Source: Fibrobacter succinogenes subsp. succinogenes S85 (GTDB taxonomy: Bacteria > Fibrobacterota > Fibrobacteria > Fibrobacterales > Fibrobacteraceae). Taken from it: a DNA stretch of 32,000 bases. How positions within the stretch are numbered: position 1 is the first letter of the stretch; each line of letters starts with the position of its first letter. The position numbers were made by a program, and so were the translations under genes. The stretch covers positions 1,830,001 to 1,862,000 of the forward strand of contig NC_017448.1 in assembly GCF_000146505.1 (NCBI RefSeq), written 5' to 3'. Below, piece after piece: positions 2,085 through 13,557 of this stretch. The notes beneath the pieces were generated by a model that had not been told where the DNA came from, did no database searches, and saw only the letters and a program-made list of their open reading frames with translations.

Positions 2085-4178
2085 TTAGAACCCCTGTGTT
2101 AATGTTAATTTGTACTCTCGCCCCGGTGTCGGGAATGATATATAGGGATTTCTATAAGTTTCATCCGTCAAGTTCCTGAGCGCAAAAACAAGTCGAGTTT
2201 TCGTAAAAGGTGTATAGCCCAAAGCAAAGTGGTGTAAATCTACAGCAGGCTGTTTTATGCGATTTGCACGGTCATCAAAGATGTCGGTACGATATTCCGA
2301 AGTCCATGTCAAATCAAGATGGAACGGCAAATCAAATCGAGCCTCCGCATAATACGAACGCGCAGGTTCATTCGGGAGTTGTTTGCCATAGTAATACTTT
2401 TCATCGCTACGATCTTCAGCATCTTGGAATGTCGCACGTAAAACCACGGAAAGCCATTTTTTCGGCCTACTTTCGAGTTCCGCTTCAAGCCCACGAATAT
2501 GCGCTTCTCCAACATTCTTCGGTTTTGAAATACCTGCACTCACCAACCAATAAATTCCATTATCCAAATCGGTTTCAAAATACGTTGCGCGAATTGCGGT
2601 ATTGCTTTTGGGAATCATATAATAGCCACCGACTTCAAAACGCAACGCCGATTCATCCTTCAAATCAGGATTTGAGAGCATTCCTGGATAAACACCATAA
2701 AGCTCCATCAATTGTGGCGTACGAACAAATCGTCCAAAACTCAAGTTGCCACCGAACCGAGAATTCGGTGCATCATAGCGCACAAAGCCTCGTCCAGACC
2801 ACGAAACATTACGGTCTTTCGCTGTTTTCAGCACAACTGATGTCGTAGGCTGAACAAATTTTCCACCATGAATATCATCCTTGACAATTAACGCCGAAGC
2901 TTCACCGCCTACAGAAAGGTTTCGAACAACATCATAAGAAACATCACCAGAGATATTCGTCGCAACACGCATCAAGTTCCATTTACTCGACGACGTCCCC
3001 CGCTTTTCATAATAGGACGCATCCAAGGATAAACGCAAATTCGCTTCTAGCCGTTCTCCCAAACAACTGGCAACGATTTCAGGGGCGAGGCTATAACCCG
3101 CAGCACCATATTCCTGCATTCCAGACATCGTATAGCCCAGATGATCCAATGGATAATACGAATGCGAAGTCGCCTTTTCATACTTTCCCGTCAGCGAAAG
3201 TTCCAACCAAAGCCAACCGAGCAACTGCGGAAGTTCTGCACGATACGTCGTCTGTACAAACTCGCCCTTGTAGCCCGCCACAGACGTTTGGTCGTCATCG
3301 CGTCCTGGGTTACCGCCTTCAGAACGGCTAAAGTTAAAATTCAAAGTCGAAAACACACCATTCGCATGCAAGACGCGAACTTTGGCAAGCCCAGAATATT
3401 CCGTAAATTCAGCGTTCCTGCGCGTATCCGTAAAATCGTCATCGGGATTGTACGGCGTTCCGTTCTGGCTATCAAATTCGTAATCGTTATCGCTATGCCG
3501 CGCCGACAAAGACGCACTCACCGAGGCGCTATCCGTCAAGCGGGAGAGCTACTGCGTCGAAGCCTCCCACGTGTTGTGGCTGCCGTAACTTAAAAGCACG
3601 CGTCCCGACTTTTTCTCTTCAGGCTTGAGGGCTACTTCGGCAGGTTTCGAACCTTTCGTGATAAAGTTGATGGCACCGCCAATACCGCGACCGCCAAACT
3701 TTGCCGGCACACGGTCCTTATAGACTTCAATCTTTTCAATCTGATTCAAGTCAATCGTTCCAAAATCAACCGCACCGCCCGACGCATCATTCAGCGGAAT
3801 GCCATCCATGCAAACGACAATGTTCTTTGCCGAGACTCCGCGGATGCTCACGGTCTGGAAACTACCGACACCGCCTTGGCGCGTGTACTGCACGCCCGGC
3901 AAAGACGCCAAGACTTCAGCCGCCGAAAGCGAACGACCTTCCCACGCTTCGGGTAAAACTTCAGCATAGCTCGAAGACGCCTGCAAAGGCTTTTCAACAC
4001 TCGTCGTCTCGTAAACGGAGGACTCGCCTAAATCTTGGATAAACTCCTCGGAAAAACTAGAAACGCTCGCAAGCAGTACGGCCGCGCACACGCGAACGCC
4101 CAAGAGACTGCCAGAACGACTGCACGCAGTCAAACACCCACGCAAACGCGTGGCTATGCAAAGCGATGTCTTTCGCAC
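2085..4178 (-). pseudogene. btuB: TonB-dependent outer-membrane receptor (BtuB-like) interrupted by one in-frame TAG at 3549..3551
   Basis: The 209-aa plug fragment (SVSIRGVSAKNIVVCMDGIPLND, FITKG) and the 484-aa barrel fragment (ends ...REYKLTLTQGF, a terminal aromatic) are in the same frame (4178-3539 = 639 = 3x213). The junction reads SHNTWEASTQ-TAG-LSRLTDSASV. A cobalamin riboswitch lies upstream. The start is uncertain (GTG at 4178). Confidence 0.8.
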
Positions 4179-4211
4179 CGTTTAACAACCCGTGGCGCAA
4201 AGCGCCCGTTG

Positions 4212-4396
4212 TGCCTTACAGTTCTTCTGACTCGGGGATCACTCTACTTCCAGCCCCTTCACACCCGCCTTGCGGCAAGCATTGGTTTATGCTGGTTTCG
4301 TCCTCCCTTACAGCGGCGAGACCGTTCCCGGCTTTCACGGGATTCTCTTATATCGCATCGTTGGTGATACGATACAGCGTTTTACCGCATAAGGCA
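4212..4396 (-). promoter_or_regulatory. cobalamin (B12) riboswitch aptamer in the btuB-like leader
   Basis: The minus-strand RNA contains AAGAGAATCCCGTGAAAGCCGGGAACGGTCTCGCCGCTGTAAGGGAGGACG, matching the conserved core (GGGAA..GGTGAAA..CCGC.ACTGTAA). It also has a B12-box-like GAGTCAGAAGAACTGTAAGG. A closing P1 helix pairs tgcctta (4396-4390) with taaggca (4218-4212). Confidence 0.8.
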
Positions 4397-8299: not shown

Positions 8300-9301
8300 A
8301 TGCTTAATTTAATAAGGGCTGTTAGCCGCTTTTTATCGACATACACATCGCTTTTCGTCATCGCATGTGCAGTCATCGCATTTTTCATCCCCATGCTTTT
8401 TGGCTGGGTTCACGGCAACACAAGCTCGATTATTCTCGGCATCATCATGCTCAGCATGGGCCTTACCATTACCATGGACGATGTCCGCAACTTGATGAAA
8501 CGTCCTGGCGACATTTTTCTCGGCGCCGTCGCGCAATACACCATCATGCCGCTCGTCGCATTTACACTCACGAAAGTCTTCGGGCTTGACCCGTATTTGG
8601 CCATCGGCATCATCCTAGTCGGTTGCTGCCCAGGCGGCGTTTCAAGTAACGTTATGAGCTTCTTGGCTAAAGGCGACGTGACCTATTCCGTGAGCATGAC
8701 CATGGCAAGCACACTTCTCGCTCCGCTCATGACTCCGCTTTTGGTCCTTTGGCTTGCTGACACGAGCATCGAAGTGAACGCCGTCGGCATGTTCCTCAAC
8801 ATCCTTTACGTGACCGTCTTCCCGATTGCAATCGGTTTCACCTGCAACTACTTCTTTGGTAAACGCGCAGGCTTCAAGGAATTCCAATCGAACATGCCCG
8901 CCGTGAGCGTTATCGGCCTTGCGTTAATCGTCGGTGGCGTCATCGTGACCGTTCGCCCGCAGCTTTTGACAAACGGCTTTGGACTTATCGCCCTCATTCT
9001 CGCAGTGGTATTCTTGCACAATGGTCTCGGCTACGTGCTCGGCTACAGCGTTGGTCGTTTGTTCAAATTCAACACCGCCAAGAAGCGCACCATCTCCATC
9101 GAAGTCGGCGTGCAGAATGCAGGCATGGCAACAGTCCTTGCCGGCGCATTCTTCGCCAACCCAGAGAATCTCGCCCTCCACCCGGAAGCCGCCCTCTGCG
9201 TTGTGCCATGCGCCATCAGCTGCGCCTACCATTCCATCAGCGGAACAATCCTCGCCGGCATCTACGCACACATGGACAAGAAGAAAGCAGTGCAAGGGTA
9301 A
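8300..9301 (+). CDS. bile acid:sodium symporter (BASS/SBF) family transporter
   Basis: 333 aa, polytopic. Has LVGCCPGGVSSNVMSFLAKGDV and SIEVGVQNAGMA, motifs characteristic of the SBF family. Confidence 0.85.
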   Translation: MLNLIRAVSRFLSTYTSLFVIACAVIAFFIPMLFGWVHGNTSSIILGIIMLSMGLTITMDDVRNLMKRPGDIFLGAVAQYTIMPLVAFTLTKVFGLDPYLAIGIILVGCCPGGVSSNVMSFLAKGDVTYSVSMTMASTLLAPLMTPLLVLWLADTSIEVNAVGMFLNILYVTVFPIAIGFTCNYFFGKRAGFKEFQSNMPAVSVIGLALIVGGVIVTVRPQLLTNGFGLIALILAVVFLHNGLGYVLGYSVGRLFKFNTAKKRTISIEVGVQNAGMATVLAGAFFANPENLALHPEAALCVVPCAISCAYHSISGTILAGIYAHMDKKKAVQG

Positions 9302-9304
9302 AAG

Positions 9305-9454
9305 CTAAAAACGTTCACCCAGCCTCTTCAAAATAATTAGCACCTCCACGTACACCAACATCTGCGCGAAATACCAAATAATTGCCATACCCACAAAAAC
9401 AATAAAAAGTTTGAAGCGCACAACAGGAGTCAACGGAGGTCTCTTTTTGTTCAT
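9305..9454 (-). CDS. possible 49-aa single-pass membrane peptide (below the ORF-track cutoff)
   Basis: Hand translation gives MNKKRPPLTPVVRFKLFIVFVGMAIIWYFAQMLVYVEVLIILKRLGERF. GAGGA lies 8 nt upstream of the ATG. It has a basic N-terminus and one hydrophobic helix. No homology was assessed. Confidence 0.35.
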   Translation of the reverse strand: MNKKRPPLTPVVRFKLFIVFVGMAIIWYFAQMLVYVEVLIILKRLGERF

Positions 9455-9539
9455 TTTAAAATCCTCGTTTTGTCATAATCTAACTCCGAGGTGCGACAAT
9501 TAATGTCGTCTACCAGGGAGCCTTATGTTTAAAGGAAAG

Positions 9540-9565
9540 CGGAGTCCCAATCGGGGCTCCGTTTT
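9540..9565. terminator. GC-rich hairpin at the downstream end of the minus-strand three-gene unit
   Basis: cggagtccc-aatc-ggggctccg, 9 bp including one G-U. It is followed by TTTT on the plus strand and by cTTTCCTTT on the minus strand. It lies 25 nt past the stop at 9586. Confidence 0.45.
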
Positions 9566-9585
9566 CGCATCACATTTATTAGGAA

Positions 9586-9834
9586 TTATTTCGTCTCCGT
9601 CATCAATTGGTCATCCAATTGCGACAGAGAACGCATCTTAAAAGCCCCAAACGTCCCCGCACGGCAATCAACACAGATTTTTCCGTCCAGGTTTTCGCGA
9701 GCCATTCTTTCAATATCTTCGGCAAAGGCACGAACCGCCAAAACGATTTCGTCAACAGAACCAGCACGGATGCAATCCGCAGTCCAGCTATGTTCAACGA
9801 CTTCATTTTCCACAGTTACATTTCGAGCTGTCAT
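9586..9834 (-). CDS. hypothetical 82-aa protein (no family recognised)
   Basis: Its ATG overlaps the upstream stop as ATGA (9831-9834), implying translational coupling. Confidence 0.6.
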   Translation of the reverse strand: MTARNVTVENEVVEHSWTADCIRAGSVDEIVLAVRAFAEDIERMARENLDGKICVDCRAGTFGAFKMRSLSQLDDQLMTETK

Positions 9835-10454
9835 GCAGCCTCCTTTGCGTCAACTTTACCAACTTTACACACAACAGACTTCACGAGAAGTCTCAGCTGT
9901 GTCAACGGATGCTCAGGATAGAGGTCATCATAGAATGGGTCCTCGCCCAAGCTATAACAACACCCTTTGCGCGGCATCCTATATATACAATCATACCCAG
10001 TATTCTCTGAGGAGGTTCCGAAAACGTCAGCGACAATTTTGCGATACTCGTCCTCGTGAATAGACCTTCGTTGGTATGAATTACCACGTTCCTCGCCAGA
10101 AACGAACAAGCGAACTATCTTTCGGCCTTTACACACATACAAATTCAGGAAGTAGCACACTTTCTCCTTCGTCTGATCCTTCGTAATGTAATAACGGCAA
10201 AGCACACCGTTTACCACAACATCGCGAAAATCAACGATACAAGAATTAGGCTTTTCCAAAGACCGAAGCAAATCTACACCGTCAAAGGAACGTATTTCAG
10301 GCAGAAAATCCTTACGAGATATTTTGCACGCCATCGCAAGAATCAAGGATTCCTTCGATTCACGGGCAAAATAAGCCTCTTTTTCATCACAGGCCTCTTT
10401 CTCGACCTTACGATACTCGGGAGGCATAAGTTTTTCTAGCCATTTCAACGACAT
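9831..10454 (-). CDS. hypothetical 207-aa protein, Cys-rich (no family recognised)
   Basis: ATG at 10454 is preceded by AGGAGG, 9 nt after the upstream stop. The ORF is long in an AT-rich context, where chance ORFs are unlikely. Confidence 0.7.
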   Translation of the reverse strand: MSLKWLEKLMPPEYRKVEKEACDEKEAYFARESKESLILAMACKISRKDFLPEIRSFDGVDLLRSLEKPNSCIVDFRDVVVNGVLCRYYITKDQTKEKVCYFLNLYVCKGRKIVRLFVSGEERGNSYQRRSIHEDEYRKIVADVFGTSSENTGYDCIYRMPRKGCCYSLGEDPFYDDLYPEHPLTQLRLLVKSVVCKVGKVDAKEAA

Positions 10455-10463
10455 TCCAACCTC

Positions 10464-10847
10464 CTAGAAAATTTTTGTGCGAAGAAGAGCCTTAACATAG
10501 TCCAAGAAGTTCATTTTCCTTGCAGGAGCAGGAATTTGCGAAAGATCCAAACCATAGTTCGAAGCCTTCGCAAAACCAACGCAAAAGGCTTGGCGTTTGC
10601 TGAATCGATTCGGGATGCAGTAACACACAATGCTTTCTCCAGAATCGTTAACAAAACCACTCTCGAAGCAAAATTTGCCCTCGCCAAAGCGATGCATTCC
10701 AACGCCATTCACCGCTCTCTCATAAGAAGCAGCAACACGGCTTAACGCCTGCTGAACAGATACAATATTGCGTTCGCTAGACTGCATAATCAAGCACTTG
10801 AGTTTGGTAAGTTCATTTTTAATAAAAATGTCATCATGTAGTTTCAT
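10464..10847 (-). CDS. hypothetical 127-aa protein (no family recognised)
   Basis: I prefer the ATG at 10847 (MKLHDDIFIKNE..., with GGAGA 7 nt upstream) to the TTG at 10910 used by the track. Confidence 0.6.
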   Translation of the reverse strand: MKLHDDIFIKNELTKLKCLIMQSSERNIVSVQQALSRVAASYERAVNGVGMHRFGEGKFCFESGFVNDSGESIVCYCIPNRFSKRQAFCVGFAKASNYGLDLSQIPAPARKMNFLDYVKALLRTKIF

Positions 10848-10990
10848 TGAAAATCTCCATTTTAAATCATTCACATTAATCACGCCCTCTATTTCAGAGA
10901 CTAGAGTCAAAAGTGAAAAAGCAGCCGGCAGCAGTTTTCTAGACCGTACCGGCCATTTTCTCTATTTTTTCAATAGCAGCAAGGCTACCG

Positions 10991-11150
10991 AAAAAGCATT
11001 TATATGGATTTACACTAGCAGCTCGACTTATTTGGCATCAGTCTTCACTGTCCGAATAAGCGAGCATCAACTAGACTTTATCTCGCCTAGAGCCAACTAC
11101 AATTCAACGAATTATGTCGGCACCAAGCTAAAGCGACTTACGTAACGAAA
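10991..11150. repeat. conserved ~150-nt non-coding element, copy A (upstream of the 127-aa gene)
   Basis: Aligns with 11414-11562 at roughly 80% identity by eye, with one 11-nt indel (tatctcgccta, only in A). The two copies share an identical 24-mer, tcggcaccaagctaaagcgactta. The central hairpin is 11021-11065. Confidence 0.8.
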
Positions 11151-11178
11151 AACACCGTTATGCGCAATTTATGGTCGG

Positions 11179-11367
11179 TCAAGCGTCTTCCTCTTCTTCG
11201 CCATCACCTTCTTCATCCTCATCCGAAGGCGGTTCATAATCCCATCCGGCATTGAACGATCTGGCGAAGTCGTCTTCTTCATCAACGTAACCATCTTCTT
11301 GTTCTTGCTCAAATTCATCATCATTGATGTGCTCGTCAATAAACTGATTCCAATTGTCCTTTTTCAT
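11179..11367 (-). CDS. hyper-acidic 62-aa protein (28 of 62 residues are Asp/Glu)
   Basis: MKKDNWNQFIDEHINDDEFEQEQEDGYVDEEDDFARSFNAGWDYEPPSDEDEEGDGEEEEDA. AAGGAGA lies 5 nt upstream of the ATG at 11367; the track start at 11388 lacks an SD. Confidence 0.6.
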   Translation of the reverse strand: MKKDNWNQFIDEHINDDEFEQEQEDGYVDEEDDFARSFNAGWDYEPPSDEDEEGDGEEEEDA

Positions 11368-11413
11368 GTTATTCTCCTTGAAGTCCATTAATCAGACTTT
11401 CTGGGATAGAGCT

Positions 11414-11562
11414 AAAAATGAATTTATTGGATTTACATTAGCTGTTCGGATTATTTGGAATCTGTCTTCACAGACCGAATAATGGAGCATCAGCTAGACT
11501 TGAGCCAACCATAATTCACCAAATTATATCGGCACCAAGCTAAAGCGACTTATGTAACAGAA
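11414..11562. repeat. conserved ~150-nt non-coding element, copy B (upstream of the acidic-protein gene)
   Basis: See copy A. The central hairpin is 11450-11483. On the minus strand it has a TATAAT-like box (gatataat; cataat in copy A). Confidence 0.8.
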
Positions 11563-11668
11563 AAGGCTACAAAGTCAATCATGATAATGGCCGTATCTAC
11601 ATAAGTAGCTTGAACGGCTTTAACCCTAATATAAGATATTTCCCAAAACACGTCAAGTCTCTCCCAGC

Positions 11669-11710
11669 AAAAAAAAAATAAAACCGCATCGGACAAATGT
11701 ACGACGCTGC
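11669..11710 (-). terminator. rho-independent terminator (second of two after the YidE-like gene)
   Basis: On the minus strand the hairpin gcagcgtcg...cgatgcgg is followed by TTTTATTTTTTTTTT. Confidence 0.5.
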
Positions 11711-11777
11711 TTTATTTCTATCAAAATTTTCTCATCACACAAGAATGACAACTCCGATTACATCGGATTTCAAAACA

Positions 11778-11810
11778 TTTGAAAAGGGCGGCCCTTTCGA
11801 GCCGCCCTTT
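11778..11810 (-). terminator. rho-independent terminator of the YidE-like gene
   Basis: aaagggcggc / gccgcccttt, a 10-bp stem with an 8-nt loop. A T-run follows on the minus strand. Confidence 0.7.
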
Positions 11811-11892
11811 GTTATGACCAGGAAAACCAAAATAACTGTTATCGCGCCGCGCGCACCTTGACTTACATTCAATCGCGCATCTCGCCAGCGTT

Positions 11893-13557
11893 CTAAGAGA
11901 TTAGCAGTATCGCAAGCACTTGCCCACTCAAGATTCTCAGTAACATCGTGAGCGGATAAACAGATGCGTAACCAACGTTTGTCGCTTCGGAATTGCTGAG
12001 GCCGTTTGCGAACGCGAGAGCCGGAGGGTCTGTCGTTGCACCTGCAAGCACACCGCAAAGCGAAAGGTAATTGACCTTGAACACCGCCTTGCCAACAATC
12101 GCCACAATCATCAGCGGGAAGAACGTGATAATCGCCGAGAGCGCCATGTAGTAGAATCCGTCGCCATTCAAGAGCACATCGAAGAACTTGATACCTGCAT
12201 TGAGACCCACGCAGCTGAGGAATATCGTAATGCCGAGTTCACGCAGCATGAGGTTTGCGCTGTTCGCCATGAAGAAGTTGAGCGGGCCAATCTTACGTTT
12301 ACGGCTGAGGATAATCGCGACAATCAGCGGGCCGCCAGCAAGGCCGAGTTTGAGCGGAGTCGGCATGCCAGGAATCGCAACCGGGATGCTACCGACAATC
12401 ACGCCGAGGAAAATGCCGAGGAATGCGGGGAGAATTTCCGGATGGTCAAGCGCCGTGAGCGAGTCACCCAATTCCTTCGCGGCAGCGGCAATGCTTTCCG
12501 GCGTACCGACAACGAGCAACTTATCTGCAAACTTCACACGGATATCGAGGCGCCCGGTAAACTTAAATCCGCCACGCGTCACTCGGCTCACGGTCACGCC
12601 AAAGCGGTCATTGAGCGCAAGCTGCTGAATGCTCTTGCCAAGAATTTTCTTGTTCGTCACGAGAATCGTCTTGACCGCCAAATTCGACTTCTGGAGCGTA
12701 ATCGGGTTTTCTTGCTTTTCGCCAATAATCTTCTGCAAACTCTCAATCGCATCCGGCATACCGACGACATGCACCAAGTCATGGAGCTCAAGCGTCATAT
12801 CGCCCTTCGGCATGTTAATCACCTGATCGCGAGCATGGCGCGTTACCACAGCACCCGAAGAGATGAGCCCCGGAATGTCCTTGATCTTGCAGCCCACAAG
12901 ATTTACGTTATCCACACGGAGCGTGCAAGAGACGATTTCCTTGGACTGTTCTGCAATTTCTTTCTGGTATTCTGCGGCAGCAACTTCCGGCTTTTGCCTA
13001 AAGAACACGCGCACAAGAATCATCACGAGGATAATGCCAATCACGCCGAACGGGTAAGCCACCGCATAGCCAACGCCCGTGAGTGAAGCGTCTACGCCAG
13101 CCGCCGTCAGAGCAGAATTCGCAGCACCGAGCGACGGGGTGTTCGTCACGGCACCGCAAAGCATGCCAATCAGCACCGGCACGTTATCGTGCATGTTCGT
13201 CGTAAAGTAAATAAGAACGGTAGCAAGTACACCCAGGAGGACGATACTCACCGCAAGAATGTTGAGCACCAGACCGTGTCGCTTTATGGAGTCAATAAAG
13301 CCCGGGCCTACTTGCATACCGATTGTATAGACAAAGAGAATGAGGCCAAATTCCTGCATAAAATGAAGAACGCTGGGCTCGATTCGCATTCCGATATGAC
13401 CGAGAAGGATTCCTACGAAAAGAGCGCCAGCTCCCCCAAGGCTCACGCCTTTCACCTTGACCTTGCCCAGCATGATGCCGATGGCAGCCGTCAAGGATAG
13501 CGCGAGTACTTGTTGCCCTACGGAGGGCTTTGCAAACAGGTCAATTAGCCAGTCCAT
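11893..13557 (-). CDS. YidE/YbjL-type putative transporter (AAE family, two central TrkA-C/RCK-C domains)
   Basis: N-terminus MDWLIDLFAKPSVGQQVLALSLTAAIGIMLGKVKVKGVSLGGAGALFVGILLGH. There is a duplicated membrane domain and soluble middle domains. I prefer the ATG at 13557 (GAAGG upstream) to the GTG at 13566. Confidence 0.8.
   Translation of the reverse strand: MDWLIDLFAKPSVGQQVLALSLTAAIGIMLGKVKVKGVSLGGAGALFVGILLGHIGMRIEPSVLHFMQEFGLILFVYTIGMQVGPGFIDSIKRHGLVLNILAVSIVLLGVLATVLIYFTTNMHDNVPVLIGMLCGAVTNTPSLGAANSALTAAGVDASLTGVGYAVAYPFGVIGIILVMILVRVFFRQKPEVAAAEYQKEIAEQSKEIVSCTLRVDNVNLVGCKIKDIPGLISSGAVVTRHARDQVINMPKGDMTLELHDLVHVVGMPDAIESLQKIIGEKQENPITLQKSNLAVKTILVTNKKILGKSIQQLALNDRFGVTVSRVTRGGFKFTGRLDIRVKFADKLLVVGTPESIAAAAKELGDSLTALDHPEILPAFLGIFLGVIVGSIPVAIPGMPTPLKLGLAGGPLIVAIILSRKRKIGPLNFFMANSANLMLRELGITIFLSCVGLNAGIKFFDVLLNGDGFYYMALSAIITFFPLMIVAIVGKAVFKVNYLSLCGVLAGATTDPPALAFANGLSNSEATNVGYASVYPLTMLLRILSGQVLAILLIS

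Follow-up and report, generated by a model that had tools for sequence, protein, structure and literature searches.

Between the genes for a BASS and a YidE transporter of Fibrobacter succinogenes S85, at positions 9305-11715 of the 32-kb stretch of DNA analysed here (the window), lies a compact minus-strand gene cluster that we read, with a probability of about one half, as an accessory operon of the genus Fibrobacter in which a cis-acting leader RNA, present in two copies (elements A and B), accompanies a module for protein neutralisation. Fibrobacter succinogenes is a key cellulose degrader of the rumen; knowledge of its regulatory RNAs, mobile elements, and defence systems is, as far as we are aware, very limited. 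What is new here, judging from comparative sequence data, is a leader RNA supported by covariation, occurring in two copies in S85, within an accessory operon restricted to one genus.

The locus had been described in a first-pass annotation as an AT-rich island of five minus-strand genes belonging to no recognisable family, and this description holds. The guanine-plus-cytosine (GC) content of the island is 42.5%, compared with 49.1% for the whole window, and 2.4-kb sliding windows (mean 49.2%, standard deviation 2.9) reach their minimum of 42.3% at the one starting at 9351, so that, on the 2.4-kb scale, the 32 kb are richest in AT at the island. The BASS, YidE, and metY flanking genes have GC contents of 53-57%, and the island genes of 40.7-47.0%. 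All five open reading frames (ORFs) match annotated S85 genes, Fisuc_1128-1132 (in the S85 record CP001792.1:1383114-1403737, the 207-amino-acid (aa) product is encoded among neighbours identical to those of the window). They remain uninterrupted in diverged relatives, where third-codon-position changes are in excess; this excess is strong in the 127-aa gene, evident in the 82-aa gene, and weaker in the 207-aa and 49-aa genes. None of the five products has a significant match in Pfam, NCBIfam, PADLOC, or PHROGs. In the order of transcription, the features of the island (all on the minus strand) are as follows:

11628-11656, minus strand: candidate sigma-70-like promoter (TTGACG-17-TATATT), 10/12 matches in a consensus scan, ~65 nucleotides (nt) 5' of element B
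11412-11562, minus strand: element B, a putative structured-leader copy in the 5' untranslated region of the acidic-protein gene (167.6 bits)
11179-11367, minus strand: gene for the 62-aa hyper-acidic protein (ACX74736), first in the operon, from ORF and annotation
10989-11150, minus strand: element A, between the acidic-protein gene and the 127-aa gene (190 bits)
10966-10995, minus strand: hairpin P3 (CGGUAGCC...GCUAUUG) of the long leader form, from folding and the comparison of leaders
10915-10962, minus strand: hairpin P4, resembling an intrinsic terminator, ~65 nt before the start codon of the 127-aa gene, from folding
10464-10847, minus strand: gene for the 127-aa protein (Fisuc_1131), from ORF and annotation
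9831-10454, minus strand: gene for the 207-aa protein (Fisuc_1130, FSU_1588), from ORF, annotation, and fold model
9586-9834, minus strand: gene for the 82-aa protein (Fisuc_1129), from ORF and annotation
9540-9561, minus strand: terminator-like hairpin followed by CUUUCCUUU, 3' of the 82-aa gene, read from the sequence
9305-9454, minus strand: gene for the 49-aa peptide (Fisuc_1128), from ORF and annotation

Sigma-70-like promoter sites are no commoner in the region than in shuffled sequences, and the site at 11628-11656 is weak evidence for a promoter; a search of the window for sigma-54 promoters found no excess and none inside the island. The hairpin at 9540-9561, already noticed in the first reading, is present with its T-run and lies within a block (9977-9528) conserved across relatives, having been missed by a simple terminator scan. 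Genes for site-specific recombinases and mobile elements are absent from the window, as had been said of recombinases before.

Elements A and B are genuine direct repeats of ~155 nt, 80-85% identical (about 82%) with one 11-nt indel, and the window holds just these two copies, against 0 expected by chance. Element A consists of a 5' motif, a dispensable hairpin P1, and a universal hairpin P2; element B has the 5' motif GUUACAUAAGUCGCU and hairpins P1 and P2, without the P3 and P4 that follow copy A. In Rfam 15, searched in gathering mode, the only match in the window is a cobalamin riboswitch (RF00174, 78.5 bits, 4200-4392, minus strand) 5' of a Plug-domain (TonB-dependent receptor) gene, with none on either element, and a search of 9200-11950 in E-value mode (E up to 5) likewise returned nothing on A or B. 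A leader peptide was considered and rejected: A contains a 9-codon ORF and B a 32-codon ORF, neither of which is kept in other lineages.

To follow the elements beyond S85, ~40 related loci (labelled L0xx) were fetched from exact-protein look-ups of homologues and from one scan each of genomes and metagenomes, and element copies were located in them by a profile hidden Markov model (nhmmer) and a covariance model. Exactly one copy lies directly upstream of every 127-aa gene in L015-17, L019-31, L033-41, and L044. S85 and the 95%-identical strains L045-47 from metagenomes are alone in having two copies, and the loci in which another gene replaces the 127-aa gene (L011-14, L018) contain no copy at all. 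A metagenome-wide scan with the pattern GTTACRTAAGTCGYT-N50-80-TTATTMGG returned nine loci, three of them chance matches and six true, the latter all being this operon between YidE and BASS; a scan of the genome collection with the 19-mer GTCGCTTTAGCTTGGTGCC gave 0 matches, even S85 being apparently absent from that collection or masked in it. Element B is 82% identical to S85 copy A, 76% to the L036 copy, and 53% to the L019 type, and, being nearest to copy A, is therefore a lineage-specific paralogue. From the tie between the element and the 127-aa gene and the conservation of the acidic gene before it follows an ancestral layout of acidic gene, element, 127-aa, 207-aa, and 82-aa genes and, usually, the 49-aa gene. 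By this comparison, copy A is the ancestral one and copy B a local duplication in the S85 lineage, not the expression of a cassette principle.

That last point bears on the interpretation offered at first, namely a cassette array whose elements would be recombination sites or cassette boundaries (like the attC sites of integrons or the repeats of Bacteroidales rAID-1 clusters) and whose genes would be independently acquired cassettes. Two similar elements before different genes, on one strand and in low-GC DNA, are what such an array would look like, and the stretch from the YidE terminator to the 127-aa gene does differ among strains; the fold relatives of the 207-aa protein, moreover, include immunity proteins belonging to type VI secretion systems (T6SS). 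The copies themselves speak otherwise, since there are only two, they are confined to S85-like strains, and elsewhere a single copy has the same gene behind it in every lineage. The acidic gene, the element, and the 127-207-82 genes change context jointly, as one unit; the metagenome scan revealed no copies outside the operon; and neither the window nor any related locus fetched contains the tyrosine recombinase or integrase that defines such arrays. We consider the cassette array very improbable and abandon this part of the first-pass annotation, its observation of two conserved elements remaining correct.

The case for an RNA begins with the folds. Each sequence type, folded alone, gives the same long hairpin P2, whose stems are an outer one, one of GCUCG/CGAGC or UUCG/CGAA, one of YUAUU/AAUAR, and an apical one that varies, and most types also have the long hairpin P1. 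A covariance model trained on nothing but the S85-type and L036 copies picked up the diverged L019 type, at 41-45 bits, and also L015, though at the margin (16.5 bits, E 0.15). In the alignment guided by and fitted to this model, which represents about five independent sequence types, 87.6% of cells are standard pairs, compared with 30-45% when partners are slid by 1-3 columns; both-sided changes affect 20/49 pairs, compared with 2-4 when slid; and the covariation score is 0.40, compared with 0.05-0.07 in the slid controls. RNAalifold, run on a plain MAFFT alignment of all P2 variants, found no structure because the 3' arms are out of register, a discrepancy that the per-sequence folds and the covariance-model alignment resolve. 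Many of the pairs are G-U, and in 4/4 lineages the sense strand exceeds the antisense strand in stability by 3-15 kcal/mol; together, these two features point to an RNA made from the gene strand. Conserved secondary structure and covariation on the sense strand, as expected of a structured cis-regulatory leader, were thus both found, in few lineages and in a model-fitted alignment.

Were the repeats instead to function as DNA (a duplicated promoter or operator region, or a recombination hot spot), the hairpins would be incidental. Several features could be taken in this sense: the 5' motif contains the palindrome TTACGTAA; the elements of L015 and L024 read TTGTGT-N16-TATAAT/G, a good sigma-70-type promoter; L024 has lost P1 by deletion between TTGGCTATAA direct repeats; and L019-type loci combine B-like with A-like flanks, as expected after recombination between A and B. 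The palindrome is not kept, however: at its position, B has TTACATAA and L015 has TTGTGTAA. S85, L019, and L036 lack the promoter-like spacing, and the compensatory and G-U changes in the hairpins make sense on the gene strand only. An explanation at the DNA level therefore appears improbable to us.

What follows the element differs among leaders. In the long ones (S85 A, L019, L028, L036, L033, and L041), it is succeeded by P3 and then P4. P3 is kept in the L019, L028, L036, L033, and L041 leaders, with G-U to A-U changes. In P4, a long GC-rich stem is extended by pairing between an A-rich 5' flank and a U-rich 3' tail, after which comes UUUUGA; its pairs are kept via one-sided changes in six leaders, and the 3' part of the leader folds with a z-score of -3.2 (0/200 shuffles fold equally well). 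On the strength of the compensatory pairing, the sense-strand folding, and the P3/P4 hairpins of the long leaders, we interpret the element as a structured leader, plausibly an attenuator, that is absent from the Rfam catalogue. Since copy B and the short L015 and L024 leaders have neither P3 nor P4, attenuation cannot be its universal mode of action.

The same hairpins would also suit a free-standing small RNA gene of ~250 nt, ending at P4 and acting in trans or as an RNA antitoxin in the manner of type III toxin-antitoxin (TA) loci such as ToxIN. The terminator-like P4 lies between the RNA and the 127-aa gene, and the L019-type element is flanked by an upstream terminator-like hairpin as well as by P4. 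Between L020 (5328-5626) and L028 (3210-3505), moreover, the ~300-nt leader is 97-100% identical, compared with 70-87% for the adjoining genes, which implies either very strong constraint or recent exchange by recombination, and some strains have an internal deletion in the 127-aa gene. Against this, no promoter was identified within the element or immediately ahead of it; copy B, like the short versions in L015 and L024, leads directly into a ribosome-binding site with no terminator between; and ToxI-like tandem short repeats are lacking, as is any match of the 127-aa protein to ToxN, AbiEii, or another toxin. We rate a separate RNA gene as unlikely.

The genes behind the leader have a narrow distribution. 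At 90% identity, the 207-aa family comprises 29 clusters, the 127-aa family 10, and the 82-aa family 15 (all at least 72% identical to the S85 protein), and all of these are from Fibrobacter only. A protein-pattern scan of the genome collection found the 82-aa family in just one other GTDB species representative, a single metagenome-assembled genome, and viral contigs, phage records, and plasmid records contain no relatives of the operon. The unit occurs in at least four genomic contexts. The first is the place between YidE and BASS (S85, L024-30, L041, and L044-47). The second lies between nitroreductase and pectate-lyase genes, with a 181-nt relic of the YidE 3' end (L019-23 and L031). The third is a variable region by Aminotran_5, ThiF, and Fib_succ_major genes (L011-17 and L036-40), where the companions include RelB/PIN, a DrmC-like PLD nuclease, LeoBC-like GTPases, and an IetA-like ATPase (E 1e-44), as well as AAA_14/DUF4143, WCX, PDDEXK_2, and Rpn/Transposase_31 genes. 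The fourth, found in L018, is 3' of a sigma-54 activator gene and tandem peptide genes, with an Rpn-like gene. On these sequence comparisons, the island is a Fibrobacter-restricted accessory operon of few lineages, its accessory nature having been supposed in the first reading, and several of its settings are defence islands.

An ordinary lineage-specific operon with a role outside conflict (e.g. in stress or at the envelope) would owe its low GC content and patchiness to fast-evolving small genes, and the shared YidE-BASS location, the lack of mobile-element genes in the window, the want of any match to defence or toxin models, and the use of the PsbP/Mog1 fold (that of the 207-aa protein) in many unrelated processes are all compatible with it. 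Such an operon is less easily reconciled with the occurrence of the unit in other contexts, by defence genes and Rpn nucleases, with its rarity among the GTDB representatives of Fibrobacter, with mosaic recombination in the 207-aa gene, and with the deletions and swaps of its components. On balance, we doubt this interpretation and hold it to be rather unlikely.

Several further observations concern these contexts. The YidE relic, which includes the terminator and lies by the nitroreductase gene (L019/L020 4108-4288; L022 1349-1529; L031 ~3585-3752), suggests that the module, on moving, took along a piece of its former flank. L018 (2934-4040) has a perfect sigma-54 promoter (TGGCACggtttTTGC), seen in this locus only, by the divergent gene for the sigma-54 activator; it is followed by three tandem units of ~344 nt, each encoding a 33-aa and a 29-aa peptide, and then by UDG-like, 203-aa, 82-aa, 49-aa, and Rpn-like genes. 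A gene family with the N-terminal motif P(Y/F)(I/V)G.(N/S)Y...(I/L)(L/V)V, usually divergent, adjoins the module in most non-S85 lineages (L018 3987-4688; L032 159-1352; L011 1721-2932; L024 129-1562; L028 1995-2783; L036 8384-9181); the L019-23/L031 and L033-35 loci showed no member of it, and S85 lacks it. One member matches Pfam UDG at E 1e-3, and the combination of a UDG-like gene with a hyper-acidic protein recalls a pair of glycosylase and DNA-mimic inhibitor.

The AlphaFold2 model of the 207-aa protein is confident, with a predicted local distance difference test (pLDDT) score of 82.5 and a predicted template-modelling score (pTM) of 0.83, and its residues ~10-150 form an alpha-beta-alpha sandwich of PsbP/Mog1 type, the fold of almost all of the top 30 Foldseek matches in the PDB. 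These include PsbP, DcrB, Mog1, EagT6/SciW (Eag chaperones of the T6SS), and Tsi3 and TplEi (both immunity proteins of the T6SS) (E 7e-5 to 1e-2, probability about 1.0), at template-modelling (TM) scores that are modest (0.32-0.37 on the query, 0.4-0.5 on the target) and with 6-16% identity, which supports assigning the modelled protein to PsbP/Mog1 at the fold level only. For the 127-aa protein, the same approach yielded an unusable model (pLDDT 45). The C-terminal helix of the 207-aa protein has a highly conserved motif, DPFYD..YPEHPLTQLR. A profile search of 1.84 billion representatives returned only four close relatives and, beyond them, a thin unnamed family of ~200-aa proteins and C-terminal domains with the motif DPYD...FPEHPLSQxRxLV; one member of that family follows a MutH-like endonuclease, a C5 methylase, and a Nuc_deoxyrib_tr-like gene. 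When PDB sequences were searched with profiles from the 207-aa, 127-aa, and 82-aa alignments, nothing was found, and a search of viral folds in BFVD gave no convincing match.

The 82-aa gene, whose start overlaps the 207-aa stop codon (ATGA), accompanies the 207-aa homologue in all cases, and its variable columns are distributed over the codon positions as 23/24/50. At the DNA level, otherwise diverged loci share a block (9977-9528) with 78-85% identity that runs from the 3' end of the 207-aa gene through the 82-aa gene to the terminator hairpin, and the N-terminal half of the 207-aa protein is ~45% identical across the same loci; a conserved end joined to a diverged N-terminus is a mosaic typical of recombining accessory genes. 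Opposite the 82-aa gene, a 104-aa antisense ORF (9607-9921, plus strand) is open in L018 and L031, and we rejected it as a gene: the codon-position pattern fits the 82-aa frame, and the ORF is probably a by-product of conservation. The gene 5' of the 207-aa homologue was also considered as a cognate variable toxin co-varying with the N-terminus of that protein, a proposal weakened by the finding that similar 207-aa N-termini follow different genes.

Of the smaller products, the 127-aa protein is under strong purifying selection and has four invariant cysteines. In the S85-like L045-47, an in-frame 213-nt deletion (window 10612-10826; L045 ~1033) removes its residues ~8-78, which would fit the loss of a toxic partner. 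The 62-aa hyper-acidic protein has a conserved DGYVDEEDDFARSF core, which its homologues of 48 aa (L024 and L015) and 64 aa (L036), encoded directly 5' of the element, share. Another, unrelated hyper-acidic protein of 83 aa (L011 4100-4351) is encoded directly before the 207-aa homologue in L011-14, so that a small acidic protein is encoded again even in loci that have neither the 127-aa gene nor the RNA element. The 49-aa peptide, with a basic N-terminus and a single transmembrane segment, occurs in most versions of the module, L011-17 being without it; in L033, an ORF called with 87 aa is its homologue, matching it at 60% identity over the last 50 residues. The 90%-identity cluster to which the peptide belongs is headed by a 670-aa primase/helicase-like protein without visible similarity, and looks like a clustering artefact.

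From the observed anatomy, distribution, conserved RNA pairing, and fold class, we infer attenuation, protein partnerships, and a biological role as follows. Transcription would run from the promoter through leader B, the acidic 62-aa gene, leader A with P3 and the terminator-like P4, and the 127-aa, 207-aa, and 82-aa genes to the terminator, the gene for the 49-aa membrane peptide being separate and beyond it. The A/B RNA would act in cis, with P2 (with or without P1) as its recognition or folding module, and the hairpin domain would set transcription past P4, translation initiation at the 127-aa gene, or both; the leader would thereby fix the ratio of the acidic protein to the downstream proteins, and copy B would place the same RNA before the acidic-protein gene. 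The proteins would together make up a module for neutralisation (toxin-antitoxin, immunity, or defence), with the 207-aa protein as its binder: the conserved C-terminal helix would dock the co-translated 82-aa partner, and the faster-evolving sandwich domain would hold a harmful or target protein, for which the 127-aa protein and the 49-aa membrane peptide are candidates. The binder role is suggested by the confident fold model, the ATGA overlap with the 82-aa gene, the mosaic conservation, and the deletion in the 127-aa gene. A role of the module in toxin neutralisation or defence is plausible, and derives from the genomic neighbourhood and one fold match.

A number of points weigh against this interpretation, in its RNA part as in its protein part. 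P1 has been lost independently in L024 (by the deletion noted above) and in L033; the folding z-scores of the L019-type (-0.5) and L033 (+0.3) elements are unremarkable; the pair counts derive from an alignment fitted to the model; P3 and P4 are missing from copy B and the short L015 and L024 leaders; and the independent lineages are few, with about five element types. Models of toxins, antitoxins, and immunity proteins, like those of PADLOC, match none of the components; proteins with the PsbP/Mog1 fold fill unrelated roles as well, and the Foldseek TM-scores are modest; the gene upstream of the 207-aa homologue does not vary neatly in step with the N-terminal type of that protein, similar N-termini being preceded by a gene of 83 aa in L011 and of 233 aa in L018; and the neighbours of the module in S85 and several relatives are housekeeping transporters, with no defence island around it.

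A bolder version would see in the locus a new class of structured regulatory RNA within a hitherto undescribed conflict module, in which a UDG-like enzyme and an acidic, DNA-mimic-like protein are joined by the RNA and the 127-aa, 207-aa, 82-aa, and 49-aa proteins. The RNA would sense a signal or neutralise a partner in the manner of an RNA antitoxin, the 207-aa protein would chaperone or neutralise a toxic partner, and the module would move between Fibrobacter defence islands by homologous exchange of conserved end blocks. We put this forward tentatively, as a speculative extension that is more doubtful than not.

Under the favoured explanation, a cis-acting leader RNA on a Fibrobacter accessory operon, the locus is a compact case of an unclassified, covariation-supported RNA that is more conserved than the genes behind it and sits on a five-to-six-gene accessory unit found in defence islands. 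If the RNA is indeed an attenuator or an RNA antitoxin, it would give rise to a new Rfam family and provide a handle on gene control in Fibrobacterota. The locus also calls for caution: two copies of a non-coding element before different genes need not mean cassettes, and here would represent a leader and its strain-specific duplicate. In the literature searched, neither the locus tags nor Fibrobacter small RNAs of this kind are mentioned.

Among known systems, type III TA loci (ToxIN, CptIN, and TenpIN) consist of tandem 34-36-nt RNA repeats and a downstream endoribonuclease of the ToxN, CptN, or TenpN family. The present locus resembles them in the succession of a structured non-coding RNA, a putative Rho-independent terminator, and a small protein gene in an accessory, defence-associated setting, but differs in that the RNA is a single 150-nt unit without tandem repeats, the 127-aa protein is not ToxN-like and matches no toxin family, and three further proteins are co-encoded. 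In an integron array, an IntI tyrosine recombinase with adjacent attI and Pc is accompanied by unrelated promoterless cassettes, each with attC at its 3' end. Here, no recombinase domain was found in the window genes or related loci, and the element lies 5' of genes, in at most two copies, is tied to the 127-aa gene, and was found nowhere else.

The rAID-1 clusters of Bacteroidales, which are orphan-immunity arrays, are defined by a 5' XerD-like recombinase, at least two co-directional downstream genes, a GC content of at most 41%, and repetitive intergenic sequences (bioRxiv 10.1101/471110). Like rAID-1 and integron arrays, the island has low GC content, co-directional small genes without an assigned function, a repeated intergenic sequence, and one product with a T6SS-immunity-related fold. 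At 40.7-47.0%, the GC content of its genes is low for this genome, and one intergenic repeat pair is present, without a repeat between every gene pair. Unlike rAID-1 and integron arrays, the island has, in the window as in the related loci, no XerD-like or IntI recombinase, and its repeat, present at most twice, belongs to one gene of a unit that moves whole.

The 207-aa protein shares with the Eag chaperones EagT6 and SciW (DUF1795) the sandwich fold of its residues ~10-150 and the lack of a signal peptide. It departs from these and the other PsbP/Mog1 proteins DcrB, Tsi3, and TplEi in its extra C-terminal helix motif PEHPL(T/S)Q.R and in having no Pfam or NCBIfam match; membership of the DUF1795/Eag family, whose chaperones pair with a T6SS effector bearing N-terminal transmembrane helices, found no support in Pfam, in PDB sequences, or in the window and fetched loci, where T6SS and effector genes were not seen. 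Cis-regulatory 5' leaders with a terminator platform (riboswitches, attenuators, or protein-binding leaders), finally, share with the element a multi-hairpin RNA 5' of an ORF, compensatory pairing, and, in the long form, a terminator-like hairpin followed by a ribosome-binding site; the element differs from them in having no Rfam match, in lacking the terminator in copy B and some lineages, and in being intercistronic in most lineages. Functionally, the element stands closest to structured cis-regulatory leaders with a terminator platform; structurally, the largest protein is nearest to the PsbP/Mog1 fold.

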